NCBI GenBank assembly: GCA_963767505.1
Contig: CAVYDV010000008.1
Span: 358,937-422,936 of the forward strand
DNA: 64,000 nt
Direction of reading: 5' to 3'
From: an uncultured Thermoleophilia bacterium
GTDB lineage: Bacteria; Actinomycetota; Thermoleophilia; UBA2241
The notes beneath the pieces are model-generated. The model did not search any database and had not been told where the DNA came from. It was given only the letters and a program-made list of their open reading frames with translations. This document shows, piece after piece, positions 6,154-62,193 of the stretch. The position numbers and the translations under genes are program-made. How positions within the stretch are numbered: the first letter of the stretch is position 1; each line of letters begins with the position of its first letter.

Positions 6154-6161
6154 GACGAGAG

Positions 6162-8179
<2,018 letters not shown>

Positions 8180-33205: not shown

Positions 33206-33604
33206 TTGACCGAGAGGATCAACCTCGAGGTGCCGGCTTCGCTCAGCGCTCTCTCGGCGGTCCGCAGAGTGCTCGGCGGTCTCGGTGCGCGGCTCGGCTA
33301 CTCGCTGGACGACATCGAAGACCTCTACCTCGGCACAGAGGAGCTGCTGCGCGCCGCGCTGAGCTACGAATCACTCGAGTGCTTTCGCCTCGAGATGCTG
33401 GTGGCGGCAGACCACCTGCAGCTCACGATCGGCACGTTCTCTTCGGAGCGCCTGCTGGCCGAAGTGGCTGCCGAGGTGCAGGCCTGCGACAGCATCGACC
33501 TCTGCCGCTTGCTGCACCGCACCATGGATGAGGTCAATGTGGTCGATCCAAGCGACGCCTTCAGCGTGGTGCTCCTCCGGCGCCATCGGGATGTGGACTC
33601 GTGA
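33206..33604 (+). CDS. RsbW-like anti-sigma factor lacking the kinase ATP-binding motifs
   Basis: The N-terminal half aligns by eye with B. subtilis RsbW (INLEVPASLSALSAVRRVLGGLGARLGYSLDDIEDLYLGTEELL vs [44 protein letters not shown]). The N-box Asn and the DxGxG/GxG boxes are absent. The stop overlaps the sigma gene GTG. Confidence 0.6.
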   Translation: MTERINLEVPASLSALSAVRRVLGGLGARLGYSLDDIEDLYLGTEELLRAALSYESLECFRLEMLVAADHLQLTIGTFSSERLLAEVAAEVQACDSIDLCRLLHRTMDEVNVVDPSDAFSVVLLRRHRDVDS

Positions 33605-39641: not shown

Positions 39642-41533
39642 GCAAATCGGGAAGTGGGGACTTGGAGTCCACGACGTTCGACACTGACGAGGGCATCGCC
39701 GTCGACGAGGCGATCGTCCTGCTCGAGCAGCCCGAAGTCGAGAGGCTCGACCTGCCGGCGAGTGATTCCGTGCCCGAAGCCAATGGGAACGGCTCCAACG
39801 GCGAGCGTGGAGTGACCACCGCCGATGCCTTGGACGGCTTCGTGCGCACGCAGCGCGCCTCCAAGCTCAGCCTCGGCGACATCCTCAAGGACATGGGTCT
39901 CGCGACAGAGAAGCAGATCACGACGGCGTTGGCGAAGCAGAAGGAGACGCGGCAACGCATCGGCCAGATCCTCATCGATGACGGCTCGATCAGTCAGCTC
40001 GATCTGACGAAGGCCCTGGCCAACAAGTTCGGCGTAGCCTTCCTCGACCTCTCGGACACGACCCTCGAACCCGCCGCCGCCGGAACGATCGACGAGAAGC
40101 TGGCGCGACGGTACGGCGCTGCGCCCATACGCTATGTAGACGAGAACACGCTGCTCGTCGCCATGGTCGACCCCCAGAATCTGCTGGCGCTCCAGGACCT
40201 CGAGATCATCACCGGCTACGGCATCCAGGCGGCGATCGCCAGCGAGGAGGACGTGTACGGCGCCATCTCCAAGATCTACCGCGACCGCCCCGAGGTCGAT
40301 CTGGACGAGGCCGACCTGGCAGACCTGGACGACGGCGCCGACGTCGCCGACATCCGCGACGCCACCGATGAGGCGCCGATCGTCAAGCTGGTGAACTCGA
40401 TCATCGCCCAGGCTGTCGACGACGGCGCCAGCGACATCCACTTCGAGCCGCAGATGAAGGAGCTCTCGATCCGCTTCCGCATCGACGGCGTGCTGCAAGA
40501 GATCATGTCGGTCCCGCGGCGCATGCTGAGCGGCGTCATCAGCCGCCTCAAGATCATGGCCGACCTCGACATCGCCGAGCGCCGCGTTCCGCAGGACGGT
40601 CGAATCGGCCTCATGGTCGGCGGCCGGCCCATCGACATGCGTGTCGCCACTCTGCCGACCGTCTACGGCGAGAAGATCGTCATGCGCCTCCTCGACAAGT
40701 CCAACGTCATGCTCGACCTCGAGGATCTGGGCTTCTCGGAGAAGGCGCTGAAGCGCTTCCGCGGGTCGTTCACGAAGCCCTACGGCGCCATCCTGGTGAC
40801 GGGGCCCACCGGCTCCGGCAAGTCGACGACGCTGTACGCGGCGCTCAACATCCTCAACTCCACCGAGAAGAACATCATCACCGTCGAGGATCCGGTCGAG
40901 TACCGCCTCGGCGGCATCAACCAGGTCCAGGTCAACACGCGCGCCGGGATGACCTTCGCCGCCGCGCTGCGCTCGATCCTGCGCTGCGACCCCGACATCG
41001 TGATGATCGGCGAGATCCGCGACCGCGAGACGGCGCAGATCGCCGTCGAATCGGCGCTCACCGGACACCTCGTGCTCAGCACGCTCCACACCAACGATGC
41101 CCCTGGGGCGCTCTCGCGGCTCACCGAGATGGGCATCGAGCCGTTCCTCTCGTCTTCGGCGGTCGATTGCGTGCTGGCCCAGCGCCTCGCGAGACGCCTC
41201 TGCACGGTCTGCAAGGAGCCCTACACTGCGACGCGCGAGATGCTGCGCAAGAACGACTTCCCCGCCGAAGTGTGGGAGCGCGACGATGTCGTCCTGCATC
41301 GCGCCAAGGGCTGCCCGCGGTGCAAGAACACGGGCTACAAGGGGCGTCTCGGCCTCTACGAGGTGATGATCGTGAGCGAGGCGATCCGCCGATTGACCGT
41401 GGAGCGCAAGAGCGCCGACGAGATCTCCCGGGTGGCCAAGGCGGAGGGCATGAAGAGCCTTCGCGAGGACGGCATCGACAAGGTACTGCAAGGGGCGACC
41501 TCCTTCGAGGAGATCGCCCGCGTCATCATCTGA
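39638..41533 (+). CDS. pilB: Type IV pilus assembly ATPase PilB (GspE family) with MshEN-like N-terminal domain
   Basis: Intact 631 aa. Walker A GPTGSGKST, Asp box, Walker B, His box, tetracysteine CTVCKEPY..CPRCKNTGYKGR. The N-terminal T2SSE_N region has two 24-aa motifs (aa 78-101 and 107-130). Confidence 0.9.
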   Translation: MSKSGSGDLESTTFDTDEGIAVDEAIVLLEQPEVERLDLPASDSVPEANGNGSNGERGVTTADALDGFVRTQRASKLSLGDILKDMGLATEKQITTALAKQKETRQRIGQILIDDGSISQLDLTKALANKFGVAFLDLSDTTLEPAAAGTIDEKLARRYGAAPIRYVDENTLLVAMVDPQNLLALQDLEIITGYGIQAAIASEEDVYGAISKIYRDRPEVDLDEADLADLDDGADVADIRDATDEAPIVKLVNSIIAQAVDDGASDIHFEPQMKELSIRFRIDGVLQEIMSVPRRMLSGVISRLKIMADLDIAERRVPQDGRIGLMVGGRPIDMRVATLPTVYGEKIVMRLLDKSNVMLDLEDLGFSEKALKRFRGSFTKPYGAILVTGPTGSGKSTTLYAALNILNSTEKNIITVEDPVEYRLGGINQVQVNTRAGMTFAAALRSILRCDPDIVMIGEIRDRETAQIAVESALTGHLVLSTLHTNDAPGALSRLTEMGIEPFLSSSAVDCVLAQRLARRLCTVCKEPYTATREMLRKNDFPAEVWERDDVVLHRAKGCPRCKNTGYKGRLGLYEVMIVSEAIRRLTVERKSADEISRVAKAEGMKSLREDGIDKVLQGATSFEEIARVII

Positions 41534-41555
41534 CAACCGCACGAAGGAAGTGGAG

Positions 41556-42630
41556 ATGGATCTGGTCGACGTCCTTCTCGAGGTCCTGGAACGCGATGCC
41601 AGCGACCTGCACCTCTCGGTGGGGTCGCCGCCCATCATCCGCATCAACGGCGCGCTCGAGCGGCTCGACTACCCGAGGCTCGAGGCCAACGACACCCGCG
41701 AGCTCATCTACAGCATCCTCTCGCAGGACCAGCGCCAGCGCCTCGAGAACGAGTGGGAGATCGACTTCTCGTACTCGGTCCCGGGCAGAGCGCGCTTCCG
41801 CGTCAACGCCTTCTTCCAGCGCAACAGCCTGGGAGCGGCCTTCCGCCTGATCCCCATCCAGATCAGGCCGCTCGAGGAGCTCGGTCTGCCCAAGGCGCTG
41901 CACGAGCTCACCAGGAAGCCGCGCGGCTTCGTCATCGTCACCGGGCCGACCGGCTCGGGCAAGTCGACGACGCTGGCGGCGATGATCGACGAGATCAACG
42001 AGACACGCGACGAGCACATCATGACGATCGAGGACCCCATCGAGTTCCTCCATCGCCACAAGAAGTGCATGGTGAACCAGCGCGAGGTGGGCGCCGACAC
42101 CAAGGGCTTCAACCGCGCCCTCAAGAGCGTTCTGCGCCAGGACCCGGACATCATCCTGGTCGGCGAGATGCGCGACACCGAGACGATGGCCACGGCGCTG
42201 ACCGCGGCCGAGACCGGGCACCTCGTCTTCGCGACCCTGCACACCCAGGACGCGCCGCAGACGATCGACCGCATCATCGACGTCTTCCCGCCGCACCAGC
42301 AGGAGCAGGTCCGCGTGCAGCTCTCGACCACCCTGATGGGCGTCTGCACGCAGCAGCTGCTGCCGACCCGCGACGGGCGCGGTCGCGTCGTCGCCTGCGA
42401 GGTCCTCATGCCGACGCCCGCGGTGCGCAACCTCATCCGCGAGGGCAAGACGCACCAGATCTACTCGGCCATGCAGACGGGGTCGGCCTTCGGCATGCAG
42501 ACGATGGACGCGGCGCTCGCCGACCTGGTGCGCCGCAACATCATCAGTCGCGAGCTGGCCATGCATCGCTCCAGCGACCCGAACGGGCTGGAGCGGCTGG
42601 TCGGGCAACCAGTGCCCGATGGGGGTCTAA
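41556..42630 (+). CDS. pilT: Type IV pilus retraction ATPase PilT; the 3' end needs a 1-nt correction in a G5 run
   Basis: SDLHLSVGSPPIIRINGAL, Walker A GPTGSGKST, GEMRD, AETGHLVFATLHT, ..VRNLIREGK. The frame reads on into pilC unless G5 (42621-42625) is G4. That would give ..PVPDGV-TAA (42628-42630), followed by GGGAGGA and the pilC ATG. Confidence 0.85.
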
Positions 42631-42639
42631 GGGAGGATC

Positions 42640-43854
42640 ATGAGCACCTTCGCCTACAAGGCGCTCGACGCCAGAGGCATGGCCGCGGGCGGACAGATCG
42701 ACGGTGCCAGCAAGGCCGCCGCGGCCGCTGCCCTGCGTCACCGGGGCCTCACCGTCCTCGACCTCAACGAGGTCAAGCGCGGCATCGGGCAGATCGAGAC
42801 TCGGCGGTCGCATCAAGCCCAAGGACCTGACCATCTTCTCGCGGCAGTTCGCGACCATGGTCAACTCGGGTCTCTCGATGCTGCGCTGTCTCTACGTGCT
42901 CGAGGAGCAGACGCAGAACAAGAAGCTCGCCAAGGTCGATCGGCGCCGTGCGCGCCGACGTCGAGGCCGGCATCATCCTGTCGGACGCGCTCGAGAAGCA
43001 CCCCAAGGTGTTCAGCCGGCTCTACGTCAGCATGGTCCGCGCCGGAGAGGTCGGCGGCATCCTCGATGAGGTGCTCAACCGCCTGGCGACCCAGCTGGAG
43101 AAGGAAGACAGCATCCGCCGCGCCGTCAAGTCGGCCATGGTGTACCCGGTGGTCATCGGCGTGTTCGCCATCCTCGTCCTGGTCGGCATGGTGATGTTCC
43201 TCATCCCCATCTTCGCCGGCATGTACAAGGAACTCGGGGACGCCGAGCTGCCGCTCCTCACGCGTATCATGGTGGGCCTCTCGGAGATCTTCCGCAGCTG
43301 GTGGGGTCTCGTCATCCTGGGTGTGATCATCCTCCTCATCTGGGTCGTCGCCCGGCTCAAGCGCACGCGAGAAGGGCGCCATGGTGTGGGACCGCTTCAA
43401 GCTGCGCATCCCCATGGGCATCGGCCAGATCGTCCGCAAGCTCGCCATCGCGCGCTTCTCGCGCACCCTGGGCACGCTCATCTCTTCCGGCGTGCCCATC
43501 CTCCAGGCTATCGAGATCACCGGCCAGGCAGCCGGCAACGCCGTCATCGAGCACGCCATGAAGGATGTGCAGCAGAGCGTCAAGGAGGGCGAGCCGATCA
43601 CCACCCCTCTCGAGAAGGTCTCGGTGTTCCCGCCCATGGTCACGCAGATGATCGCCGTGGGCGAGGAGACGGGCTCGCTCGACGCCATGCTGGGCAAGAT
43701 CGCCGACTTCTACGAGGACGAGGTCAACGCCAGCATCAAGTCGCTCACCTCGATCATCGAGCCCATCCTCATGCTCGGCGTCGGCATCATCGTCGGCATC
43801 GTCGTCATCTCGATGTACCTGCCGATCTTCAACATGATGAACATCGTCAAGTAG
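42640..43854 (+). CDS. pilC: Type IV pilus inner-membrane platform protein PilC (GspF family); 3 frame breaks
   Basis: MSTFAYKALDARG.., two GspF repeats (..LTIFSRQFATMVNSGLSMLRCL.., ..IARFSRTLGTLISSGVPILQAI.., PPMVTQMIAVGEETGSLD). Breaks at ~42795, ~42940 and ~43378. Confidence 0.85.
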
Positions 43855-43873: not shown

Positions 43874-44615
43874 GTGGAGAACGAGCAGCTGATCGCCGGA
43901 TATGCGACGAGCGGGTCGGCCGCGGCGCTCGACGAACTCGTCCGCCGCAACCAGAACCTGCTGCACCATATCCTCAAGCGTTTCGCGTACGCCAACGAGT
44001 CCTACGAGGACCTTCTGCAGGTCGCCAATCTGGGGCTCATCAAGGCGGCACAGCGCTACGACGCCACACGGGGCACGCGCTTCTCGACCTATGCGACGGC
44101 GATCATCGACGGCGAGTTGCGCCACCATCTGCGCGACTCGCTGCTCCTGCGACAACCTCGCTGGGTCAAGAAGGTCTACGCCGATATCCAGGTCAAGTCG
44201 AACGAGCTCATGCACAAGCTCGGCCGGGCTCCGGAGCTGGGCGAGATCGCGGCGGCTCTGAACATCGACGAAGACGGCATCCTCGAGGTCATGCGCCTCT
44301 ACGCGCGCATCGATCTGCACAGCCAGAACGAGCCGTACAGCGGCGACGACATGGGCATCGAGGCAGATCGCCAGTCCGTACGGGCCCTGCGGCAGGAGTC
44401 GTTCGCGCTGCCCATCGAGGACCGGATCGTCCTCTACGACGCTCTCGACACTCTCACTGGGTTCCAGCGTCGGCTCGTCTACCTCCTCTTCTTCAAGCAA
44501 CTCACGCAGTCCGAGGTCGCAGACCTGCTCGGCTTGAGTCGAAGGTCTCGCGCGAGCAGATCAAGCTGCTCGCACGACTTCGCCAAGCGTCTGCGCGGCT
44601 GGCCGCTTCACGATA
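43874..44615 (+). CDS. Group-3 sigma-70 family factor (FliA/SigD/WhiG-SigF-like) encoded inside the pilus cluster; one frame break (~44537)
   Basis: Region 2 (YEDLLQVANLGLIKAAQRYDATRGTRFSTYATAIIDGELRHHLRD), region 3 (LGRAPELGEIAAALNIDEDG), region 4 (RRLVYLLFFKQLTQSEVADLLGLS | KVSREQIKLLARLRQ..). Corrected stop TAG 44613-44615. GTG lies 19 nt after the pilC stop. Confidence 0.8.
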
Positions 44616-44855
44616 GTGCGGGCAAGAGACCCGCCTGCGCGGCTGCAGGCAGCGTCAGCGCCGCGCTGAGGCGTCCCCCGACTGGCGCACGGCCTGCCCC
44701 TCGATGGCCACTCCCGTCCACACGAGGGCATCCGTCGGCCGCTCACCGATCACGCAGTTCCTCGCCGCCGACCACGTGTCGACGAACCACTAGACGCTTG
44801 TTCCAGTCTGGGAGTGCCTGATCGGGGCAGAGTAGGTGTGCGTCAGACAGTCGCC

Positions 44856-44883
44856 TAAAGTGTCAACACGCGATTGCCGAAAG
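44856..44883 (+). promoter_or_regulatory. Candidate sigma-28-type promoter TAAAG-N15-GCCGAAAG upstream of the pilA leader
   Basis: TAAA at 44856-44859, a 16-nt spacer, then GCCGAAAG at 44876-44883 (consensus TAAA-N15-GCCGATAA). A second copy with identical spacing is at 51830-51857. Confidence 0.5.
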
Positions 44884-44919
44884 AGTGTCTAGGAAACGCA
44901 CAAGGAGGCACACTAGGGA

Positions 44920-45000
44920 CGAAAGCGATAAAGGCAAACCACCCGCGAGGGTGGGGCGCAAAGCTACAGGACTCACAGAGTCGGCTGAGCTGCCGCTACA
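44920..45000 (+). promoter_or_regulatory. Candidate c-di-GMP-I (GEMM-I) riboswitch aptamer in the pilA 5' leader
   Basis: GGCAAACC (44933-44940). Helix CCACCC/GGGTGG capped by GNRA loop GCGA (44939-44954). GGCGCAAAGC (44955-44964). A 12-bp second hairpin (44962-44991). Closing pairs GGC/GCC and AGC/GCT. Confidence 0.65.
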
Positions 45001-45155
45001 GGAGCGTTCAACAAAGCCTGTGAAGCCCGGCCGCGCCAAGCCAGAGCTTCGCAGGCTTCTTCTGTGGGGTCCGCGCAGGAAGCAGGGTCGGCAAGTCGTA
45101 CTACGCAGTCGTGTACATGTGGGGCAACGCACCAACAGAGAGGAGATGGCAGAAC

Positions 45156-45542
45156 ATGAAGCGTTTCACCAAAAAGCAGGGGGGCTTCACCCTCATCGAG
45201 CTCCTGATCGTGATCATCATCATCGGCATCCTCGCCGCGATCGCGATCCCGATGTTCCTCAACCAGCGCACCAAGGCCAAGGACGCAGGCGTCAAGGAAG
45301 GCACGCACAGCATCCAGATCGGCGTGCAGAGCTACGCCGTCGACAACAACGACGTCTATCCGCTGACCGCCACCATCGTCGCCGACGTCACGCCTCAGCT
45401 CGACCCGTGGCCGGACAACTCGTTCACCGGTGCCGCTATGGCCAACGACGGCGCCTTGGGCAACTTCACCTACGCGTCTGTCGCCGGAGCCGACTACACG
45501 CTCCTGGGTGTCTTGAGCGGCGGCAACTTCGTGGTGCGCTAG
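45156..45542 (+). CDS. pilA: Type IV major pilin (class III signal peptide)
   Basis: MKRFTKKQG|GFTLIELLIVIIIIGILAAIAIP shows a prepilin leader, cleavage-site Gly, Phe+1 and Glu+5. RBS AGAGAGGAG. 128 aa. Confidence 0.92.
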   Translation: MKRFTKKQGGFTLIELLIVIIIIGILAAIAIPMFLNQRTKAKDAGVKEGTHSIQIGVQSYAVDNNDVYPLTATIVADVTPQLDPWPDNSFTGAAMANDGALGNFTYASVAGADYTLLGVLSGGNFVVR

Positions 45543-45603: not shown

Positions 45604-45748
45604 GTTGGGCCCCACGGTCGCCGCGCACAGGAGTGAGTGCGGTGGGCGGCGAACACCCAATTGCGTCGCCGTCCGATCGCACCGGGCCATTGCGAGCGAC
45701 GAGCGGTTCTCGGACTGGAACGACCCTGCGAAAGGCGGATGCGAGGGA

Positions 45749-46513
45749 ATGGTTCAGGAAGACCTGACTACCAGCATCGAGCCGTCGGCGAACGACGCTG
45801 GCGGTCCGGCCGTTCTGATTGCGGCCTCCACAAGACGGTCGCCGTCGGGTTCCGGCGCCGGAAGGTTGACATCCTGAAGGGCGTCGATCTCGTCGTCAAC
45901 CGGAATGAGGTGTTCGGCCTCCTGGGGCCCAACGGAGCGGGCAAGACGACGACCGTGAAGGTCGCCCTCGGCCTGATGAGAGCCGACGGCCGGCAACGCC
46001 CGCCTCGGCGTCGACGGGCTCGCGCGCGTCGGCTACCTCCCGGAGAACGCCTACTTCTACGACTATCTCTCGGGGCGCGAGTTCCTGGCGTTCTGCGCCC
46101 GTCTCTTCGCGCTCGACCCGGACGTGCGCCACGAGCGCGTCGACGAACTGCTGTGCGACGTCAGCCTCGAGGCGGCGGCCGACATCCACCTGCGCAAGTA
46201 CTCCAAGGGCATGCTGCAGCGCATCGGCATCGCGCAGGCGCTCATCAACGACCCGGAGCTGGTGCTCCTCGACGAGCCCATGACGGGACTCGACCCGGTC
46301 GGCCGGGTCGAGGTCAAGCGCATCATCCAGGACCTCCACGAGCGCGGCAAGACCGTACTCTTCAACTCCCACATCCTCGGCGATGTCCACGAGCTCTGCT
46401 CGCGCATCGCCATCATGCGCGCCGGCCGCGTCGTATGGACCGGAGCCGTCGCCGAGGCCCTGAACGAGGCGGCCTCCCTCGAGGACTTCTTCATGAAGGT
46501 GGTGACGGCATGA
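45749..46513 (+). CDS. ABC transporter ATP-binding protein (ABC-2 type, PilH-like position); 2 frame breaks
   Basis: ..[30 protein letters not shown] (Walker A), [15 protein letters not shown] (signature), [12 protein letters not shown] (Walker B). Breaks at ~45820 and ~45985. Confidence 0.8.
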
Positions 46514-47275
46514 ACCAGGTCGTGGCCATCGCCATGAACACATTCCGCGAGACGATCCGCGACAGAGTTCTCGCGGTCATCGTGGTGTTCGCCCTGCTGA
46601 TGATCGCCGGCGGCCTCTGGCTGGGCAGCATCAGCCTCGGCGAGCAGGGACGCATGATCATCGACTTCGGGTCTGGTCGCAGTCACGGGCTTCGGGCTCA
46701 TCGTGGCGGTGTTCGTGGCCGCCAGCCTGGTGCACAAGGAAGTCGAGAAGCGCACCGTGTTCGTGCTTTTCTCCAAGCCGGTGAGCCGTGCAGCGTTCAT
46801 CGCCGGCAAGTTCCTCGGCCTCTGCGGCACGATGGCCGTTGTGCTCACCGGCATGGGGCTGTTCCTCTTCGCGCTCGTCTGGCTGGTCGCCGGGCAGGCC
46901 TCGGGCATGGTGCTCCTCGCCGTGCTCATGATCTACGTGCAGCTTCTCGCCGTCGTCGCAGTCACGGTCTTCTTCTCGACCCTGGGCTCGGCTATCCTAG
47001 CGGCCGTGCTCGGCATCTGCGTGTTCGTGGCCGGGCAGCTCAGCCACAACGTCCTTTCTCTGACGCGCCTCGGCGACAATCCCGTCACCGAGGCCCTCTC
47101 CTGGGTGGTCTACGTCATCATCCCCAACTTCTCGGCGGTCGACGTGAAGGCCGGCGCCGTCGGGGAGCAGACGCTCGCCTGGGGGCAGATCGGGCTGTGG
47201 GCGGCGTACCTGCTCGCCTACATCGTCGTCGCCCTGGCGCTGGCTACCGTCGTCTTTCGCCGCAAGGAGTTCTGA
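46510..47275 (+). CDS. ABC-2 family transporter permease (PilI-like position); one frame break (~46670)
   Basis: ATGA overlap with the ATPase gene. [20 protein letters not shown].. and about six hydrophobic segments. Confidence 0.75.
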
Positions 47276-48046: not shown

Positions 48047-48824
48047 GTGACGGCCTCCCTCGTGGTCATCGCCGTCCTCTTCGGCCTCCTCATCGGCAGC
48101 TTCCTCAACGCCTGGGCTTGGCGACTCGCTCATGAGGAGAAAATCAGCAGCGGCCGCTCTGCATGCCCGAAGTGCCACCATCAGATCCGCGCCTACGACA
48201 ACATCCCTGTGATGAGCTGGCTCATCCTCCGAGGGCGCTGCCGAGACTGCGGGACGTCGATCAGCTGGCGCTACCCGGTGGGGGAGGGGGTGACTGCCGT
48301 CTTGTTCGGTAGCCGTCGCCGCCTTCGATGGCCTGAGCTGGCTGCTCGTCCCGCATCTGATCTTCGTCTCGGTGATGATCCTCATCAGCCAAGTGGACCT
48401 GGAGACGATGATCATCCCCGACGTCGTGATCCTCCCGGCGGCGCTCATCGGCCTTCCATTGATGATCGCCCTGGGTGACGGCCCTTGGTGGGAGTGGCCG
48501 CTGGCCGGGCTCGCTGCCGCGGGCGCGCTCTGGCTGATCGGCGAAGCCTACTACCGGCTGAGACATGTCGAGGGTCTGGGATTCGGCGACGTCAAGCTGG
48601 CACTCTGCATGGGCGTGTACCTCGGCGCCGCCGTGGTCCCTGCCGTCTTCATCGGCTTCATCAGCGGCGCCCTTATCGGAGTCGCTGTGATAGGCGTGCG
48701 CAAGGCCGGCGCGAAGACCGCCGTTCCCTTCGGACCATTCCTGGCTGCCGGCGCAATAGTCGCCCTGTTCGCCGGCCAGTGGCTCATCGACGCGTACCTC
48801 GGTCTCGCCTTCCCCGATCGCTGA
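48047..48824 (+). CDS. pilD: Prepilin peptidase (A24 family) PilD; one frame break (~48305)
   Basis: N-terminal Cys pairs CPKCHH..CRDCG, then ..ISQVDLETMIIPD.. and GLGFGDVKL (the two catalytic Asp contexts). Confidence 0.85.
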
Positions 48825-48966
48825 GCAGGCGGTACGTCATCCGGGTGACCACTCCGTCACCCTCGTGACCTTCCGCCTGCTCGGCTAGGCTGGCTGCGTT
48901 CTCCCCCCGGGTCGACACGAGGCATCCTCCCGGCCTCGTTCGACCCCCTCCCGCCGGAGGTGAGGA

Positions 48967-49419
48967 ATGCGCCAGCAGAGAGGCTCCACCCTGTTCGAGC
49001 TCATGACCGTGCTCGCCGTCGGCGGGCTCCTGGCGGGCATCGCGATCCCTGGGGTCGGCGCAGCGCGGCGCACGCTGGCCGGCGATGCGGGGGCGCGAAT
49101 GCTCGCGCTCGTTCTGCGCGCCGCGCAGTCCCGAGCCCAGGCGCACGCAACGACAGTGACGGTGGCGATAGCGGGCGACGGCGCCTACACAGTGCACGAG
49201 GCGCAGACTGGCGCCGGGCCCTCGAGTGGGCCCGCGCTCGTCGCCTCCGGTGGGCTGGGGGCGGATGTCGGAAGCAACTACCCGTCCGCCGTCGTCGAGT
49301 TCGGTCCGCGGGGATGGCCCCGCCTGCCCGGCTACGGGAGTCCGCGAGCCGGCACCTTCACCGTGGGCGGCGACAACCGGGTCGTCCTGCAGCTGGGCGG
49401 CTGCATCCGATGCAGATGA
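48967..49419 (+). CDS. Minor pilin / pseudopilin (GspH/FimT-like)
   Basis: MRQQRG|STLFELMTVLAVGGLLAGIAIP prepilin N-terminus. RBS GGAGGTGAGGA. Intact 150 aa. Confidence 0.75.
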   Translation: MRQQRGSTLFELMTVLAVGGLLAGIAIPGVGAARRTLAGDAGARMLALVLRAAQSRAQAHATTVTVAIAGDGAYTVHEAQTGAGPSSGPALVASGGLGADVGSNYPSAVVEFGPRGWPRLPGYGSPRAGTFTVGGDNRVVLQLGGCIRCR

Positions 49420-50013
49420 GCAGTTCGGGCAGAGGGTTCTCGCTCATCGAAGCCATAGTCGCCGTCGCCGTTCTGCTCGCCACCTGCCTCGCGGTGAGCG
49501 CCAGTCTGGCGGTGGCGCTCCAGGCGGATCGGCAAGTCGAGAGGCGCGACACGCTGGAGGGGATCCTGGGGTCCGAAAGCGCGCGTCTGGCTTCCCTGCC
49601 CTTCCGCCGGACGACGGCGCCACCTGTCGCGGGCGTGGCGTGGAGCCCAGACCCGCGCTCGCTGCTCGGCGAGGTCTTTCCGCACGCAGACGCAGGGCAC
49701 GACGGCGACGGCTCCTACCACGTCGAGGGCGGCGTCGGCGTGTTCGTCGCGAGCCGTACCACTGAAGGCTTCGAGATATTCAGCGAGGCGCGCTTCGTGC
49801 GACGCAAGCCACGCAGGGTGGGTACCCGTGCCCGCGGCGTCCTTGCAGGGTTGGAGCGTCTGGGGTACTCAGCCTCTCCCTGCGGCGACGGTGGAACTGC
49901 GCCTCACGGCGTCGCGAGGCTCCGCCACTGCGTCCGCTCAGATGATCCTCGGCGCGCTGCGAACCAGAGTCAGCCCTATAGCGTCTGCTCTCGGAGGCTC
50001 TCGTGAGGGCTAG
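49410..50013 (+). CDS. Minor pilin (PilV-like); possible frame break ~49815
   Basis: MQMSSSGRG|FSLIEAIVAVAVLL. The C-terminus looks more protein-like in the +1 frame (..VELRLTASRGSATASAQMILGAL..). The start overlaps the previous stop. Confidence 0.65.
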
Positions 50014-50581
50014 GCTGATCGCCCGTCGGCCCTGCGCGTCCCGTCCGATCGGGGGAGTCCCCAGCCAGGGCGGAGCGACGCTCACGGAACTGCTTGTGGC
50101 TCTTTCCCTGTCGGCGGTCGCGCTCGCTGCCGCCTGGCCATGGCTCTGGAACGTCGCCGAGGTCGCTCGTGCCGCGGACGCCAGAGCCCAGGCCGCGACG
50201 TCATCTGCCTTCGCCACGCGCAGCATCGCAGCCGATCTCGAGTGCGCTACGGCACTGCTCGCCCCGCCACCTGGCGCGTCGCCAGAGCGCTGTCTCCAGC
50301 TGACGCATGCTCACCCTGGCCAGACGCGTGAGACGGTCCTCATTGCCTGGAGCGCGCCACGGCGAGTTCTGTGGCGCAAGACGACGGCGACATACCTCGC
50401 CGACAACGTCGAGTCATTCACGATCACGTACTTCGACCACCACGGCGAACCCTTGGCGCCAATCGACTTGGCCCAGCCGGCGTGGCCTGACACGGTCAGC
50501 AGAGTGCGCATCAGGGTCGGCGTGTCAACGCCCTTGGGATCCTCCAGCGCCGCTTGCGACGTGGTACTGCGCGCCCGATGA
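50003..50581 (+). CDS. Minor pilin (PilW/GspJ-like)
   Basis: ..SQGG|ATLTELLVALSLSAVALAAAW prepilin-type N-terminus. Intact 192 aa. Confidence 0.7.
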   Translation: MRARLIARRPCASRPIGGVPSQGGATLTELLVALSLSAVALAAAWPWLWNVAEVARAADARAQAATSSAFATRSIAADLECATALLAPPPGASPERCLQLTHAHPGQTRETVLIAWSAPRRVLWRKTTATYLADNVESFTITYFDHHGEPLAPIDLAQPAWPDTVSRVRIRVGVSTPLGSSSAACDVVLRAR

Positions 50582-51718
50582 AGGGCCCCCGACGCGCAGA
50601 CGGCTACGCTCTTGTTGCCGCATTGGTGATCATCGCTCTGGCGGGCACGCTAGCAGCGCTCTGCATTGCTGCCGCCTCCGCGCAGCAGGAGATATCGGGC
50701 GTAGACCGTCAGGCAGCCGCCGCCACGGCAGCGATCAATGAGGGACTCGACGACGTCTGTGGCCAGCTCCGCTGGATTCCGCAGACTCGCTCCGGCACTC
50801 GACGATCGGCGCCAGGGACGGGCAGCCGTTGGGCCGCCACCTGGCGCCCAGCGATCCCCGCGGCTGCAGGGACGCCAAGGCTCACGCTCGACCTCACATC
50901 GATGGATGCTCGCGCCCAGCGCAGCCTTCAGGCGATCGTCGAGCTTCGCCCGGAGCTCGTCTCGCAGGGCGTAGTGGTCTCGGGTGACGTGGATCTCCGG
51001 GCCCCGACCACTATCAGCGGGAGCGGCGTCTACACAGGCGGCTGCCTGCGAGGGCGCCAATGGCTGCGGTTCACAAGCGGTGACCTTGCGGCCCGTCTGC
51101 CCCCGCGCGCGACGAGGTGCATCCGGAGATGTGGTCGATGGCCGGCGTCCGCGCTATGGGCGGCATCTGGGCAGACGGCAATGAGATTCACGCTCCGGGA
51201 GAGGCCTCCGCATGGACGGACGACACTGACACGCACACGCCCGAAGACGGCCTTGCCGACCTCACGCGCGCCTTCGACCAGGACCTGCTCTGCGCGCTGA
51301 GTGAGCAGGCCATCCCTCCCGGTGATGCTCTGATCGACGGCGTCCTCGATCTGGCGCGTCTGCCCGCCCGCCCAGCGAACGGCGGCGTCGAGGCCATCGT
51401 CGTACTTCGTACGACCCGTGGCCGACGCGACGCTCCTCATCGTTGGCGCGCGCAGCGCTGCGGATTGTCCACTCGTGCTGATCGTCGACGGCGACGCGTG
51501 CTTCGGGCTTCCCGACTCGCCACCGATCTTCGCGCGGGGCGCACTCGTGGTCGCCGGAGGACTTCGAAGTCAGGGGGCCCACTCGCTATGCCGGCCACGT
51601 CCACGCCCAACAGCTTCTGATCGATGCGCCGACGCACTTCGAGGTGCCCCGCGACTGGCGAGAGCGCCCTCTCCCGGGCCTCACTGAGCCCGTCATCGTC
51701 GCGCTTTCCGGATCATGA
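50578..51718 (+). CDS. PilX-N-like large minor-pilin/tip-associated protein; ~3 frame breaks
   Basis: MKGPRRADGYALVAALVIIALAGTLAAL has a hydrophobic N-terminus without Glu+5, as in PilX/GspK. The coding signal follows frames 1 > 0 (~51105) > 1 (~51415) > 2 (~51570), ending at TGA 51716-51718. Confidence 0.55.
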
Positions 51719-51829
51719 CCCTCAGACGCAGGAGGCCGGACGAATGCTCTGTACCTCGTTTACCCAGTATGAGAGACTTGTGCCATGTGCAGGGAAGGTG
51801 CCGAAAGCAGCTCGGCGAACTCTGCGTCT

Positions 51830-51857
51830 AAAGGTATCCGTGCTGTCTGCCGACAAC
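51830..51857 (+). promoter_or_regulatory. Candidate sigma-28-type promoter TAAAG-N15-GCCGACAA upstream of pilM
   Basis: TAAA at 51830-51833, a 16-nt spacer, then GCCGACAA at 51850-51857 (7/8 to GCCGATAA). It lies 36 nt upstream of the pilM ATG, which has RBS GAAGGGG. Confidence 0.5.
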
Positions 51858-51892
51858 GCCGCCAGAGCGGCGATGTGAGTGAAGGGGCTGGA

Positions 51893-52996
51893 ATGGGGAA
51901 GAGTGGACCGCGCGTCGGGATCGACTTGGAGCAGTCCTCGATCGCCGGGGCGCAGGTGAACGGCTCGCGGCAGGGGCATGCATTGACTCATGCTGCCGTC
52001 CGATCCCTCCCACCGGGATTGATGTTCGAGGGCGAGGTCGTCGACGTAGAGGGTCTCGCCGCGGAACTCAAGTCCTTCTGGAAGGCGAGCGGCTTCAGCG
52101 GCAAGAGGTTCGCCCTCGGAGTCGCGAACCAGAAGGTCGTGGTCCGCACCATGGACTTCCCGATCATGGACGAGAAGGAGTTGCGCGCCGCGATCGAGTT
52201 CCAGGCCCAGGAGGCCATTCCCATCCCGCTCGCTGACGCCATCCTCGACTTCGAGGTACTGACGACAAGCTCTGGTCCAGACGGCGGCGGCTCCCAGAAG
52301 GTGCTGATCGTCGCGGCGCAACGAGAGATGGTCGAGCAGTTCGTAGAGGCAGCGCGAAAGGCCGGACTCACCATCGACGGACCTCGACCTGCAGGCGTTC
52401 GCCCTCATGCGGTCGATGGCTCCCCCGGTTGCGTTCGTCGATCAGGGTTCGCAATCTGCCGGAGAGGCGACGGCGCTCGTCAACATGAGCTCCAGCACCA
52501 CCAACCTCGTCGTGGCCGTCAACGAAGTACCCCAGTTCACGCGCGTCGTGAACCTCGGCTGCGAAGCGCTTCTTGAGGCGCTTGATGACCAACCGCGGCA
52601 TCAATCACGATGAGGCCGACGTCCTGCGTCTCAACGTGGGGCTCACCGGCTCGGAGCCGCCGTTCGCGGACCTCGAACAAGAGACGCTGGCCGAGGTCCA
52701 TCGGGTCCTCGACACCGCCTGCGAGGCGTTCGCCGACGAGGTGCGCAGGTCGATCGACTACTACCACTCCCAGGACAACCCCGGGCAGATCGGCGAGATC
52801 CTGCTCAGCGGCGAGGGCGCCCTGACGCGCAACATGTGCGACTACCTGGCGCAAGCGCTCCACCTGAGCGTCGCGCTCGGGAATCCCCTGCAGCATCTCA
52901 GCGAGAACAAGACGAGCATTCCCCAGAGCCGACCTTGAGGCGATCTCTCCGCGCCTCGCCGTCGCCTTGGGTCTCGGCCTGGACAGCGAGGAGTAG
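51893..52996 (+). CDS. pilM: Type IV pilus assembly protein PilM (actin-like ATPase fold); 3 frame breaks
   Basis: ..RVGIDLEQSSIAGAQV.., ..FALGVANQKVVVRTMDFPIMDEKELRAAIEFQAQE.., ..LVNMSSSTTNLVV.., ..ILLSGEGA.., C-terminal ..ISPRLAVALGLGL. Breaks at ~52385, ~52585 and ~52925. Confidence 0.8.
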
Positions 52997-53002
52997 GCGG
53001 CC

Positions 53003-53665
53003 ATGAAGCGTTTCAACCTTCTGCCTCCCGAACAGCGCGTCAAGGCGTCGCGCGATCGAGGAATGCTGTATGCCATCTTGGGCCTCGTCGTGCTCGTGCT
53101 GGCCCTCGGCGCCGTCTATCTCCAGCAGAACAGCGTGGTCAACGACCGACAGGCCGAACTCGATCGACTCAACGCCGAGAACCAGATCGTCCAGGCGCAG
53201 CTTGCGGAACTCCAGCCATACGCCGACATCCACAACCTGCGCACGGCCATGACTGAGACCGCCGTGAACATCTACGACGCGCGTGTGCCCTGGTCCAACA
53301 TCGTCGAAGAGGTCAGTCTAGTGATTCCTGAGAACGTTCGCCTGCAGACCATGAACTGCGTCGTCCCGCCGGAGATGCTCCCGGGGCCGGCTCAGCCCGA
53401 GACGACCGCCGACACCACGCCGACCGTCGACGTCACGTTCACCGGCGATACCTACACGCACAAGGACGTGGCCGAGTTCATGACGCGCCTCGGCCTCATC
53501 CCGCAGCTCACCGACATCCAGCTCGCCAGTTCCACGGAGTCGACCGGCCCCGTCGCAGCCGCGATTTCAGGCTCGACAGTGACGTTCACCGTGAACGCCT
53601 CGCTGCGGTCCTATATCAAGTCACCGCCGACGACCACTCTGCAGACCGCGGGGGCCACACAATGA
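53003..53665 (+). CDS. pilN: Type IV pilus assembly protein PilN
   Basis: MKRFNLLPPEQR is the conserved PilN N-terminal INLLP-type motif. It is followed by a TM helix and coiled coil. Intact 220 aa. Confidence 0.85.
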   Translation: MKRFNLLPPEQRVKASRDRGMLYAILGLVVLVLALGAVYLQQNSVVNDRQAELDRLNAENQIVQAQLAELQPYADIHNLRTAMTETAVNIYDARVPWSNIVEEVSLVIPENVRLQTMNCVVPPEMLPGPAQPETTADTTPTVDVTFTGDTYTHKDVAEFMTRLGLIPQLTDIQLASSTESTGPVAAAISGSTVTFTVNASLRSYIKSPPTTTLQTAGATQ

Positions 53666-54290
53666 AGAGAGCTCGCGGCAAAGAGGTCTACATCATCACC
53701 GCCGTCGTAGCGGTCGTCATCGCGGTCGCCTGGTACTTCCTCCTGCTCAGCCCCACGCGCAGCGAGATCGCCGACGAAGACGGATGAGGTGCAGGTCGCT
53801 CAGGCGAACCTGAACACCTCACGACAGCAGGTCACTCGGCTCGAGGCCTACAAGAAGACCGCCCCCCAGTCACGCGCCGAGATCGTGCGACTCGGCAAGA
53901 TGCTGCCGGTGAGCGAGGGCATCCCCTCGCTGATCGTCGAGCTGACGAAGACCGCCTCATCATCCGGCGTCGGGCTGGTCGGCATCACGCGCGGCGAATC
54001 CTCTCCCGGTGCGCCCTTCGGCATCCAGGCGGTCAACGTCCAGGTCAGCGGCCGTTTCTTCGAGACCGAGGACTTCCTGAACCGGCTTGAGAGCTACGTG
54101 GCGTTCAACAACGCCAACTTCCGCGTGACGGGCCGGCTTCTTCAGGTGGTCAGCGTCAATATGGCCGTCCAGGCCCTTGCTGACCGAGACCTCCGCCACT
54201 TCTCCTCCGCTCACCGTGAGCATCGTCCTGAACGCGTACCTCTGGGGTGGCGGTGCGTCCACCGCGGCGAGCGCGGGAGGTGCAACGTGA
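53662..54290 (+). CDS. pilO: Type IV pilus assembly protein PilO; 2 frame breaks
   Basis: ATGA overlap with pilN. TM helix (YIITAVVAVVIAVAWYFLLL), coiled coil, then ..IPSLIVELTKTASSSGVGLVGIT..VQVSGRFFETEDFLNRLE... Breaks at ~53783 and ~54168. Confidence 0.75.
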
Positions 54291-55099
54291 TCAAGAACAA
54301 GCGCCGACTCGCCCTCGTGGTCATCGCGCTAGTCCTCGGCGCGGCACTGGCGCTGGCAGTGGTGCTCTCCCGAGGCGACTCATCGGAGAGCACGGAAGCC
54401 AGCCAGGCCACGCCCTCGCCGGCCGCCACGACGCCCGTGGCCGCGCAGACCACAGACGACGACCCCCTCGCCGTCGACCCGGCGAAGCAGGAGCCGCTGC
54501 TCGACAAGTTCAAGAGCAAGGACCCCTTCATCCCGCTCACCGTGGCGAGCACCGGTAGCACCGGCGCCACCACCGGCACGACGACGAATACCAGCACGAC
54601 CGGCCTGAAGGCGAAGATCACCGTGAACGGAACCGCCTCCACGGTATCCGCGGGTGATGAGGTGCCCCCAGGTGGCGCCGTCTTCACGATCTCGAGCATC
54701 ACCGCCAGCAGCGTCACGTTCAAGCTCCTCTCCGGGGTGTTCGAGAACGGTGATTCCTCTGTGACCGTGGGCGTCGGCGAGAGCGTCAAGGTCACTCAGG
54801 ACGGTGGTCCGTCCTACACACTCACGGTGGTCAGCACCGGCAGCGCGAGCAGCACCACGACGTCCACGGCATCGGGCCACTCGATCACGGTGCTGAGCAT
54901 CAACGAGAGCAACGGGACCTCCCTCGTGTCCCTCGAGATCGACAAGAAGACGTACACGGACAAGAAGACGGGGCAGACCTTCAGCACCACGTGGGGCGAG
55001 GTCAAGGTCCTGTCGATCGACCAGGCTGCCCAGACCGTGACGATCATGCATGGCGATCAGACCATCACCTTGCGAGCAGGCCAAGTGGTCGTGAAGTAG
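54287..55099 (+). CDS. Membrane-anchored Thr/Ser-rich protein in the PilP position (PilP-like, two beta-rich segments)
   Basis: GTGA overlap with pilO. TM helix (LALVVIALVLGAALALAVVL), KDPFIPL motif, T/S-rich linkers. The two segments end ..FTISSITASSVTFKLL and ..VKVLSIDQAAQTVTIMHGDQTITLRAGQ. Intact 270 aa. Confidence 0.55.
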   Translation: MIKNKRRLALVVIALVLGAALALAVVLSRGDSSESTEASQATPSPAATTPVAAQTTDDDPLAVDPAKQEPLLDKFKSKDPFIPLTVASTGSTGATTGTTTNTSTTGLKAKITVNGTASTVSAGDEVPPGGAVFTISSITASSVTFKLLSGVFENGDSSVTVGVGESVKVTQDGGPSYTLTVVSTGSASSTTTSTASGHSITVLSINESNGTSLVSLEIDKKTYTDKKTGQTFSTTWGEVKVLSIDQAAQTVTIMHGDQTITLRAGQVVVK

Positions 55100-59763: not shown

Positions 59764-60331
59764 ATGGCAGAAGTAGTCTCCACGAACCAGTTCAAGAGCG
59801 GCATGGCGATCGAGATCGACGGTCAGCCGTTCACGATCGTCGAGTTCCAGCACGTCAAACCTGGCAAGGGTGGCGCGTTCGTGCGCACCAAAGTGCGCAA
59901 CATCGCCAACGGCGCGGTCCTCGACAAGACCTACCGCGCCGGCGAGAAGTTCGTGCGCATGCACACCCGGTCGCGCAAGATGGCCTACCTCTACTCGACC
60001 GAGGACGAAGTGGTCCTCATGGACAATGAGACGTACGAGCAGGTCTCCGTGAGCCGCCCCATGGCGAAGGACGCGCTCGAGTGGGTCGTGGAGAACATGG
60101 AGGTCGAGCTCCTGTTGCATCAACGACGCCCCGTTCGAGGTGGCGGCGCCGAACTTCGTCGAGCTGACGATCACTCAGTCGGATCCCGGCGTGCGCGGCG
60201 ACACAGCTCAGGGGGCCACGAAGCCGGCCGTCCTCGAGACAGGCGCCGTCGTGCAGGTGCCGCTGTTCGTCGAAGAGGGTCAGCGCGTCAAGGTCGACAC
60301 GCGCACCAGGGAGTATCTGAGCCGCGCCTGA
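59764..60331 (+). CDS. efp: Elongation factor P; one frame break (~60120)
   Basis: ..[37 protein letters not shown].. | ..[39 protein letters not shown]... Confidence 0.9.
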
Positions 60332-60357
60332 CGGCGCGCCGGGGACAGGAGGACGCG

Positions 60358-62193
60358 ATGCGCGCCCGTCAAGTACAGATCACCGATACGACGCTGCGCG
60401 ACGGCCACCAGTCGTTGTGGGCGACGCGCATGCGCACCAACGAGATGCTTCCCATCCTCGAGCAGATGGACGAGATCGGCTACCACTCGCTCGAGTGCTG
60501 GGGAGGCGCGACCTTCGACGCCTCGCTGCGCTTCCTCGACGAGGACCCGTGGGAGCGTCTGCGCCTGATCAAGAAGCACGTCGTGCGCACGCCCCTGCAG
60601 ATGCTGCTGCGCGGCCAGAACATCGTCGGCTACCGTCACTACGGCGACGATATCGTCCGCCGCTTCGTGCACAAGGCGGCCGAGAACGGGATGGACATCT
60701 TCCGAGTGTTCGACGCGCTCAACGACATCCGCAACTTCGAGACGGCCGCCGCGGCGATCAAGGAGACCGGGAAGCACTTCCAGGGCGCGGTGGTGTACAC
60801 GATCTCGCCGGTGCACTCGCTCGATCACTACCTCGAAGTCGCCCACAAGCTGGTCGACATGGGCGCCGATTCCATCTGCATCAAGGACATGGCGGCACTC
60901 CTCTCTCCATACTACGCCGAGCAGCTCATCGGGCGCCTCAAGGCCGAGATCAGCGTCCCCATCCAGCTCCACTGCCACTACATCGGTGGCCTCGCGCCGA
61001 TGACGTACCTGAAGGCCGTCGAAGCCGGCGTCGACGTGATCGACACGGCCACCGTGCCGCTCGCCTTCGGCAACTCCCAGCCGGCCACCGAGATGGTGGT
61101 GACGGCGCTGATCGGTACGCCGTATGACACCGAACTCGATCTCGACAAGCTCTTCACGATCGCCAAGTACTTCGAGGGGGTTCGCGTCGAGATCGGCCAC
61201 GAGCGCGGCGTCACCTCGCTCACCCACATGCAGGTGTACTCTCATCAGGTGCCCGGAGGCATGATCAGCAACCTCGAGAGCCAGCTCAAGGAACAGACCG
61301 CTCTCGACCGTATGCCCGAGGTGCTCGAGGAGATCCCGATCGTTCGCGCCGAGATCGGCTTCCCACCCCTGGTGACCCCGATGTCCCAGATCGTCGGGAC
61401 TCAGGCCGTCCTCAACGTGCTCTCCGGCCGTCGCTGGCACATCGTCCCGGACGAGATGAAGGCCTATATCCGCGGCATGTACGGCGCGGCGCCCGGTCCC
61501 ATCTCGGACGAGGTCGTCAAACGAGTGCTCGGCGACGAGAAGCCCATCACGGGCCGGCCGGCCGATCTCGTCGACGAGACGGTCGAGGGGTACCGGGAGG
61601 AGATAGGCGACCTGGCGCGGTCGGAGGAGGATGTCATCAGCTACGCGCTCTTCCCGCAGACGGCACGGACCTATCTGGAGCGGCACCAGGTCGGTGCCGA
61701 GGCCGACGTGTTCGGAATGCACGAACGCTACCTCGCCACGCAGATCGGCGCGGCGCTCGCCGACTCCTCGGCAGACCGTGTGCGCGAGATCCTGACGATG
61801 GTCGAGGACAGTGAGGTCGATGAGGTCGTGATCGAGGAAGGCGACCTCAAGGTCACGGTACGCAAAGCGGGGGCTGCACCCGTGGCGGCTCCGGTGGGGG
61901 CGGCTGCGGCGAGCACCGCCGCGGCGGAGGCCGCGGATGCGAGCGCCAACGGACACCACGTCGTCCGCTCCAAGTGGGTGGCGACCTTCTACAGAGCTCC
62001 CTCGCCTCAGTCGCCGACGTTCGTCGAGATCGGCGACCCCGTCGAGGCCGGTCAGACGCTCTGCATCCTCGAGATGATGAAGATGATGAACGAACTGACC
62101 GCCGACATCGACGGTGTCGTTCGCGACATCCTGGTGGAGAATGGACAGACCGTGGAGTACGGACAGCCCCTGTTCGCCATCGAGCCGACCTGA
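60358..62193 (+). CDS. Carboxyltransferase (oxaloacetate decarboxylase alpha / pyruvate carboxylase subunit B / 5S type) fused to an AccB-like biotin carboxyl carrier domain
   Basis: ITDTTLRDGHQSLWATRM (HMGL-like/PYC_OADA N-terminus). The C-terminal ~75 aa read VATFYRAPSPQSPTFVEIGDPVEAGQTLCILEMMKMMNEL..VENGQTVEYGQPLFAIE, with the biotinyl-Lys MKM motif. Intact 611 aa. Confidence 0.85.
   Translation: MRARQVQITDTTLRDGHQSLWATRMRTNEMLPILEQMDEIGYHSLECWGGATFDASLRFLDEDPWERLRLIKKHVVRTPLQMLLRGQNIVGYRHYGDDIVRRFVHKAAENGMDIFRVFDALNDIRNFETAAAAIKETGKHFQGAVVYTISPVHSLDHYLEVAHKLVDMGADSICIKDMAALLSPYYAEQLIGRLKAEISVPIQLHCHYIGGLAPMTYLKAVEAGVDVIDTATVPLAFGNSQPATEMVVTALIGTPYDTELDLDKLFTIAKYFEGVRVEIGHERGVTSLTHMQVYSHQVPGGMISNLESQLKEQTALDRMPEVLEEIPIVRAEIGFPPLVTPMSQIVGTQAVLNVLSGRRWHIVPDEMKAYIRGMYGAAPGPISDEVVKRVLGDEKPITGRPADLVDETVEGYREEIGDLARSEEDVISYALFPQTARTYLERHQVGAEADVFGMHERYLATQIGAALADSSADRVREILTMVEDSEVDEVVIEEGDLKVTVRKAGAAPVAAPVGAAAASTAAAEAADASANGHHVVRSKWVATFYRAPSPQSPTFVEIGDPVEAGQTLCILEMMKMMNELTADIDGVVRDILVENGQTVEYGQPLFAIEPT

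Follow-up and report, generated by a model that had tools for sequence, protein, structure and literature searches.

The 64-kb window analysed here, from an uncultured Thermoleophilia bacterium, is a core-genome stretch of 67% GC that contains one type IV pilus (T4P) cluster, located between aroE and aroC. The element under study is a promoter-like motif in front of pilM, at the head of pilM-pilN-pilO. Direct reading of the + strand at this site gives tCTAAAGgtatccgtgctgtctGCCGACAAc, i.e., a CTAAAG -35 element and a -10 element, GCCGACAA, separated by 15 nt. The site is located in a 174-nt spacer (51719-51892) between the TGA of the last minor-pilin gene (51716-51718) and the pilM ATG at 51893; the end of the -10 element and the ATG are 36 nt apart. 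The GC content of the spacer is 0.60-0.63, versus ca. 0.69 in the flanks. A preliminary description of this DNA had already placed the motif 36 nt from the ATG in a 174-nt spacer of lower GC, with a CTAAAG element common to the pilM and pilA sites, and direct reading bears this out. The motif was present where that description put it, at 51830-51857, with coordinates that were ca. 2 nt off (the true span is 51828-51856), and the 16-nt gap it gave is correct only when counted from the TAAA core, the distance from CTAAAG to GCCGACAA being 15 nt.

Written as TAAA-N16-GCCGACAA, the pilM site is one mismatch away from the consensus of sigma-28/FliA/WhiG promoters, TAAA / GCCGATAA, with 11 of 12 positions matched. 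With its CGA core intact, it also fits the WhiG2 consensus, T(A/C)AA-N16-GCCGATAA, in which the CGA at the centre never varies and the last three bases do (Denis et al. 2026 preprint, PMC12871210); variability in these last three bases is also what distinguishes the three sites described below and those of relatives. The same two blocks with the same spacing form flagellar class-3 promoters read by FliA/SigD (TAAA-N15-GCCGATAA; Helmann 1991, as cited), the difference being that T4P genes, not flagellar or chemotaxis genes, lie downstream here. No flagellar genes were found among the window open reading frames (ORFs) scanned. The pilM site is intergenic, co-oriented with pilM, and less than 200 bp from the start codon, as the criterion of Schumacher et al. 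2021 specifies. Two matches to CTAAAG-N14-17-GCCGA are present in the window, versus 0.01 expected, and one match to TAAA-N14-17-GCCGAYAA, versus 0.00 expected; a chance origin of the pilM motif is thus ruled out. A scan of positions 51400-52000 revealed no sigma-70-type promoter (TTGACA-N16-18-TATAAT-like). We conclude that the pilM site is probably a promoter of the sigma-28 (FliA/SigD/WhiG) class, from which the pilM-pilN-pilO transcript would start. The promoter reading of the preliminary description is thereby supported, though the sigma-28/FliA/WhiG consensus, published for Rubrobacter T4P, had gone unrecognised there.

To follow the site in related genomes, a genome scan with the PilM N-terminus was used. 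It yielded 74 loci, the closest of which were from uncultured Thermoleophilia metagenome-assembled genomes (MAGs), with 62-77% identity; look-ups of exact proteins contributed L075-L081, intact clusters in which the genes follow the same order. L075 (ERZ25039459 contig_19753), with an 82% identical PilM, is the nearest relative; contig_42839, GCA_041393415.1, GCA_036751705.1, and GCA_936415865.1 are further MAG sequences with the cluster. The sequence TAAAG...GCCGACA(A/C) is present 61-66 nt before the pilM start in all 28 of the 28 lineage loci that cover the region upstream of pilM, and the two elements are likewise preserved upstream of pilM in L075, L076, and L078-L080, with spacing and distance from the start unchanged. 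The comparison of orthologous pilM upstream regions, which had been proposed as a check, therefore revealed both hexamers and the spacing in every region recovered from the lineage. In an alignment of 15 diverse pilM spacers, CTAAAG and TGCCGACA are, together with the start codon, the only long invariant blocks. The sequence of the 15-nt stretch between the elements varies freely, while its length is kept (14 nt in L002 and L021), so the distance from TAAA to the -10 element is 16 nt in the window and most relatives, and 15 nt in these two. The spacing in short-read assemblies (L001, L003, L005, L010, and L014) is identical to that of the window and is, therefore, not an artefact of the error-rich window assembly. 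In 554 kb of sequence from 34 related Thermoleophilia MAG loci, TAAAG-N14-16-GCCGA occurs 55 times, versus 0.5 times expected. All 55 copies are on the pil strand, and each occupies one of three syntenic positions: upstream of pilM; in the interval that separates the sigma gene of the cluster from the riboswitch and pilA (site 1); and within the 3' end of aroE, before pilB-pilT-pilC-sigma.

All three places are occupied in the window (Table 1). The site 1 motif is syntenic and conserved in at least 20 relatives. While the -10 element at pilM matches GCCGATAA at 7 of 8 positions, as was claimed before, that of site 1 is GCCGAAAG and not GCCGATAA, as had been assumed; the two elements agree with each other at 6 of 8 positions, and the pilM site is the closer match to GCCGATAA. 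The aroE-internal site is conserved in L075-L081, is located ca. 190-220 nt before pilB across loci, and in L079 and L080 matches TAAA-N15-GCCGATAA without a mismatch. Its codons (GGT AAA G.. GAT A) are rare ones ending in A or T, in a genome with a third-position GC of ca. 0.85-0.9; this speaks for selection at the DNA level. The site probably serves pilB-pilT-pilC-sigma as an internal promoter. The "small dedicated regulon" of the preliminary description, which was based on two sites, is not established. Within the 64-kb window there are three sites in the cluster, and if their reader is a WhiG-type sigma, the regulon as published for Rubrobacter reaches beyond the pilus genes to c-di-GMP turnover. 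Its statement that the minor-pilin spacer (48825-48966) lacks the motif agrees with our scan of that spacer. Around site 1, a conserved CTAGAC...TTCCAG inverted repeat (44790-44806, ca. 60 nt upstream) and a GTGTCTAGGAA block (44885-44895, just 3' of the -10 element) recur in relatives; both are candidate operator sites for a regulator of the pilA promoter.

Table 1. Features of the T4P cluster and its promoter-like sites (positions in the 64-kb window).
Feature	Position	Strand	Remarks
aroE	38832-39641		
Third site, TAAA-N15-GTCGATAC	39419-39445	+	within aroE 3' end, 193 nt before pilB start; missed in the preliminary description
pilB	39638-41533	+	MshEN-type c-di-GMP (cyclic di-GMP)-binding N-terminus
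pilT	41550-42830	+	
pilC	42640-43854	+	frameshifted (three times)
Cluster group-3 sigma gene	43874-44616	+	1-nt frameshift near 44538; SigB/SigF-like
Sister site 1, CTAAAG-N15-GCCGAAAG	44855-44860 (CTAAAG), 44876-44883 (GCCGAAAG)	+	between cluster sigma gene and riboswitch + pilA
c-di-GMP-I-GGC riboswitch aptamer	44924-44998	+	Rfam RF03167, 66.9 bits versus gathering score 59
Terminator-like hairpin (AGCCTGTGAAGC ... GCTTCGCAGGCT), then U-rich tail	45015-45070	+	riboswitch expression platform
pilA, major pilin	45111-45542	+	prepilin N-terminal methylation motif
ABC ATPase + ABC-2 permease	within 45637-47275		ORFs split by frameshifts
pilD	48047-48824		frameshifted near 48313
Four minor-pilin-like genes	48967-51718		last one frameshifted
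pilM-site -35 element, CTAAAG	51828-51833	+	TAAA core 51829-51832; direct read
Promoter spacer, 15 nt (16 nt from TAAA core)	51834-51848	+	direct read
pilM-site -10 element, GCCGACAA	51849-51856	+	7/8 versus sigma-28 consensus GCCGATAA, CGA core intact
pilM leader, 36 nt	51857-51892	+	direct read
GC-rich inverted repeat CGCCGC-CAGA-GCGGCG	51857-51872	+	within pilM leader
Shine-Dalgarno-like GAAGGGG	51881-51887	+	within pilM leader
pilM	51893-52993	+	Pfam PilM_2, TIGR01175; three frameshifts (ca. 52382, 52575, 52900)
pilN	53003-53665	+	Pfam PilN; 61% identity to L076 PilN
pilO	53789-55099	+	Pfam PilO, domain in first 100 residues; ORF as listed

If the geometry typical of the class applies, RNA polymerase with a sigma-28-type factor bound would contact TAAA at -35 and GCCGACAA at -10. 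Transcription would then start ca. 6-9 nt after the -10 element, and by this analogy we infer a pilM start at ca. 51862-51865, which would leave a leader of ca. 30 nt with GAAGGGG as the ribosome-binding site. Gaps in the leader among the 15 aligned spacers are not multiples of three, so the leader is non-coding. For the same reason, and because protein conservation begins exactly at the ATG at 51893, ORFs 51624-51878, 51785-52576, and 51722-52408 (minus strand) were rejected as genes. The inverted repeat of the leader was considered as a 5' RNA hairpin, and this reading was dropped because the repeat straddles the predicted start. Upstream of the promoter, part of the lineage has a second conserved block in the pilM spacer, CTGTAC...TGAGAGACT (ca. 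51747-51782), whose version in many relatives is CTGTACGC-N-CTCTCTTTGTGAGAGAGT, with an internal inverted repeat. Taken together, the three promoters of the same class would serve pilB-pilT-pilC-sigma (aroE-internal site), the riboswitch and pilA (site 1), and pilMNO (the pilM site, or site 2), and would permit joint switching of the pilus motor, the pilin, and the alignment complex.

The promoter class is also found beyond the lineage. In 44 pil loci of Solirubrobacterales and Acidimicrobiia (L028-L071, 781 kb), T(A/C)AA(G/A)-N14-16-GCCGAT has 75 matches, versus 2.6 expected; 31 of these are upstream of pilA (most of them ca. 135 nt away), 28 abut pilD, and seven are ca. 275 nt upstream of pilM. 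The sites in these groups use TCAAG as a -35 variant and GCCGAT(C/A)A as the -10 element. Since none of the Solirubrobacterales and Acidimicrobiia pil clusters contains a sigma gene, the promoter class is read there in trans and is older than the cluster sigma of the Thermoleophilia lineage. Our search follows the same logic as that of Denis et al., in whose work T4P genes are a recurrent predicted class of WhiG targets (Cellulomonadaceae, Cryptosporangiaceae, Sanguibacteraceae, Rubrobacteraceae, and Jonesiaceae are named; PMC12871210), and the distribution presented here extends theirs: Thermoleophilia, Solirubrobacterales, and Acidimicrobiia are absent from the main text of that work, and the distribution in the latter two groups is not in the main text of PMC8325347 either.

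The closest known case is that of Rubrobacter, a unicellular, deep-branching actinobacterium of a sister class, whose T4P-cluster promoters are of the WhiG class and are controlled by a (RsiG)2-(c-di-GMP)2-WhiG switch (Schumacher et al. 2021, PMC8325347). In Rubrobacter radiotolerans, a search with TAAA / GCCGATAA allowing at most two mismatches, followed by capture of 5'-triphosphate ends, validated 12 sites, three of which are in the T4P cluster and head three transcription units; the T4P cluster of R. xylanophilus has two such sites, and c-di-GMP turnover genes at other genomic locations also belong to the Rubrobacter WhiG regulon (PMC8325347). The likeness consists in the same consensus and in several promoters per T4P cluster (three here, as in R. 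radiotolerans), each at the head of a pil unit. The differences are that start sites were mapped in Rubrobacter, whereas here the sites are predicted from sequence; that the -10 element here is GCCGAC/A rather than GCCGAT; and that the cluster of the Thermoleophilia lineage additionally has a SigB/F-like sigma gene and, in the leader of pilA, a riboswitch for c-di-GMP (the main text of PMC8325347 has no mention of a riboswitch). WhiG-type control of type IV pili has also been reported in Actinoplanes and predicted in several other families.

By analogy with Rubrobacter, the likeliest reader of the three sites would be a WhiG-type sigma factor encoded elsewhere in the genome, and we regard this assignment as reasonably likely. 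Thermoleophilum, Patulibacter, and Conexibacter, which belong to Thermoleophilia, carry WhiG together with a single-motif RsiG. Several observations weigh against this reader or against a separate pilM transcript. No gene of the sigma-28 family is present in the 64-kb window or in the lineage loci examined, and the RsiG motif E(X)3S(X)2R(X)3Q(X)3D has no six-frame match in the window; since rsiG of Rubrobacter is unlinked to the pilus cluster, the latter absence says little. A WhiG homolog is present in only ca. 30% of Actinomycetota genomes, so its presence in the lineage is not to be assumed. A search for WhiG on contigs bearing pil clusters revealed only WhiG of the Rubrobacteraceae type, in a dprA-whiG-rpsB-tsf context, and none tied to a pil-cluster contig. 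The pil cluster itself encodes a rival reader, the cluster sigma, whose gene immediately precedes site 1. Finally, the scan of 51400-52000 revealed no terminator between the minor-pilin genes and pilM, so read-through into pilM from the former is possible.

The bait for the tblastn search of the window was a Streptomyces coelicolor WhiG sequence, ca. 97% identical to S. venezuelae WhiG (PDB 6PFJ); it matched only two SigB/F-like genes. Further baits were the sigma-4 segment of R. radiotolerans WhiG (PDB 7LQ4) and a full-length WhiG rebuilt from locus L082. The Rubrobacteraceae-type whiG genes lie between dprA and rpsB-tsf-pyrH-frr (L082, 5447-6291; L083, ca. 6001-6291), and a motif scan of these two loci revealed no sites. 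The dprA-whiG-rpsB neighbourhood is presumably the same in Streptomyces, and the dprA/rpsB neighbourhood provides an anchor for finding whiG in fragmented MAGs.

We therefore turn to the explanations that compete with a trans-encoded sigma-28-type reader. In the strongest of these, the promoters are real and are read by the cluster SigB/SigF-like sigma, which would be made from the pilB-pilT-pilC-sigma operon and would then activate pilA and pilMNO. This factor would act as a dedicated pilus sigma with a sigma-28-like promoter, much as fliA within flagellar operons turns on flagellin. In every cluster of the lineage its gene has a syntenic position, with its start 19 nt from pilC and site 1 directly downstream. 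It co-occurs with the TAAAG / GCCGA(C/A) form of the motif, while lineages without the gene use TCAAG / GCCGAT; the outcome of the WhiG searches, which returned Rubrobacteraceae genes and none for the lineage, also favours this reader. The protein, scored through its intact 246-aa ortholog P0001, belongs to an isolated family that is below the cut-offs of both relevant models: the best model is SigBFG (177.7 bits versus a cut-off of 234), the second-best is the SigF model PRK07408, which we take to be of the cyanobacterial type, and the score on FliA_WhiG (TIGR02479) is 91.6 bits versus a cut-off of 189.6. For comparison, the sigma gene at 33601-34434, directly preceded by an RsbW-like anti-sigma gene (region 33206-34434), is a bona fide SigB/F/G member (301 bits versus the cut-off of 234). 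The nearest other cluster representatives at 50% identity are 49-52% identical to the cluster sigma, and the next ones ca. 40%; more than 1000 close homologs are present in metagenomes. Among solved structures, those most similar to the cluster sigma are SigF and SigB rather than FliA or WhiG, and its nearest cluster representatives among 1.8 billion proteins are also SigB/F-like. Alignment with S. venezuelae WhiG, E. coli FliA, and a further FliA (PDB 9wsf) revealed that the segments that would read DNA are SigB/F-like rather than sigma-28-like: region 4.2 is SQKKVSRE versus (T/G/S)ESRVSQ in WhiG/FliA, and region 2.4-3.0 is GELRHHLRD..QPRW versus M(I/L)DE(L/V)R..DW-PRSV, without the sigma-28 loop insertion. 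Known factors of the SigB/F type use quite different promoters, with a GGGTA-type -10 element. There is a precedent for a non-sigma-28, group-3 factor tied to pilin expression in Synechocystis SigF, which is dedicated to pilA1; its promoter, TAGGC (-32) / GGTAA (-12), is quite different too and is not read by E. coli sigma-28 (Asayama and Imamura 2008, PMC2532724), and neither element is present in 51828-51856. No convincing target promoter for the cluster sigma was found, the design of the minor-pilin spacer looking like sigma-A plus activator rather than SigB/F. The same promoter class is present in pilus clusters of lineages without the cluster sigma gene, which makes a trans-encoded sigma-28-type factor the simpler common explanation. 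The cluster sigma thus appears, from its predicted DNA-contacting segments, to be a poor candidate for reading TAAA / GCCGA, though it is suggestively placed, and we consider it unlikely to be the reader. Equally doubtful is the elaborated form of this proposal, in which a dedicated pilus sigma evolved or kept sigma-28-like specificity via different DNA-contacting residues and, together with the aroE-internal promoter, forms a cascade that runs from pilBTC-sigma to pilin and pilMNO, with the c-di-GMP riboswitch and the c-di-GMP-binding PilB as further layers of control.

Two remaining explanations deny that the motif is a promoter. It may be the binding site of a transcription factor, the true promoter being elsewhere in the spacer, e.g., at the CTGTAC...TGAGAGACT block. 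Other conserved blocks are indeed present upstream of the motif in the pilM spacer, and the conserved CTAGAC-type inverted repeats flanking site 1 indicate that regulators act in such regions. However, these other spacer blocks are limited to sub-clades and are absent from L002, L021, L075, and L076, which retain the motif; and the motif is asymmetric, points without exception in the direction of the downstream genes, keeps a fixed distance of 29-37 nt to the start codon, and has the fixed two-block geometry and near-complete consensus match of a known promoter class. We consider a factor-binding site improbable. Still less credible is the absence of any specific function, with the motif owing its existence to chance or its persistence to the close kinship of the compared genomes. 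Many of the MAGs in the comparison (L004-L027) are closely related, and their spacers are fairly conserved over the full length, but the distant members (the window, L001, L002/L021, L003, L075, and L076, with PilM 62-82% identical) have diverged nearly throughout the spacer except for the two blocks, and the excess of matches over expectation, in the window and among relatives, on one strand and at three syntenic sites, contradicts this explanation.

c-di-GMP may act on the cluster at several levels. In a switch of the Rubrobacter type, RsiG loaded with c-di-GMP sequesters WhiG, and pilus promoters are off at high c-di-GMP; were WhiG/RsiG to apply here, all three promoters would fall silent at high c-di-GMP. 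The riboswitch of the pilA leader has its aptamer and its terminator side by side without overlap, a layout suggestive of an OFF switch; it would then act in the same direction. The c-di-GMP-I-GGC riboswitch is also present in L001, L075, and L076, and was not detected in pil clusters of Solirubrobacterales or Acidimicrobiia. A leader that senses c-di-GMP before the major pilin gene is also known from Clostridioides difficile, where a c-di-GMP-II riboswitch is located upstream of pilA1. This likeness concerns site 1, not the pilM site, and the two cases differ in riboswitch class (c-di-GMP-II versus c-di-GMP-I-GGC) and in sign, the C. difficile riboswitch being an ON switch and the one here a suggested OFF switch. 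The N-terminus of PilB (39638-39950) contains tandem MshEN-type c-di-GMP-binding motifs (NF053729, 53 bits); the PilB extension ATPase is, therefore, probably itself a c-di-GMP receptor and would add a post-translational input. No GGDEF or EAL genes were found among the window ORFs scanned. Thus, there are up to three possible c-di-GMP inputs on one pilus system: WhiG/RsiG, the pilin-leader riboswitch, and the MshEN motifs of PilB.

The minor-pilin genes appear to be controlled differently. Their spacer contains tandem CGTCATCC repeats, ACGTCATCC (48835-48842) and CCGTCACCC (48855-48862), ca. 20 nt apart, followed by a TANNNT -10-like element, TAGGCT (48885-48890), a design common to relatives and suggestive of a housekeeping promoter that depends on an activator (sigma-A plus activator). 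Three proteins, namely, an ABC ATPase, an ABC-2 permease, and one of 247 aa without a family, are conserved inside the pilus cluster (45637-47275 and the next ORF in the window; 12118-14352 in L075); the trio may resemble PilH, PilI, and PilG of Myxococcus. Frameshifts occur about once per 400-1000 bp in otherwise conserved genes, whose proteins retain 70-93% identity to intact orthologs. The pattern is that of an error-rich, uncorrected long-read assembly rather than of pseudogenes, so gene calls and exact lengths in the window are not to be trusted. With the intact 366-aa PilM of L075 as the tblastn query, for example, the window pilM was matched in frames 2, 3, 1, and 2, and ORF 59764-62193 joins efp to a carboxylase. 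Elsewhere in the window a 6S RNA gene is present (28449-28602, 79.9 bits), and the pilus cluster region of one Solirubrobacterales MAG contains a group II intron (domains D1-D4; L049, 6433-6789).

In summary, comparative evidence makes the interpretation of the pilM motif as a real, strongly conserved promoter well supported. The finding is solid but largely expected, since the consensus is a textbook one and its use before pilus operons has been published for Rubrobacter, in the sister class. If anything lifts the locus above a known case, it would be the extra sigma of the cluster, which is outside curated families. The three conserved sites provide a motif for regulon prediction in abundant uncultured soil bacteria, and the locus is a compact test case for the combination of c-di-GMP and sigma layers. 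The link between WhiG-type promoters and type IV pili is extended from Rubrobacter to uncultured soil Thermoleophilia, as well as to Solirubrobacterales and Acidimicrobiia, which supports the view that control of pili was an ancestral role of this sigma family in Actinomycetota and that its recruitment to sporulation in Streptomyces came later.

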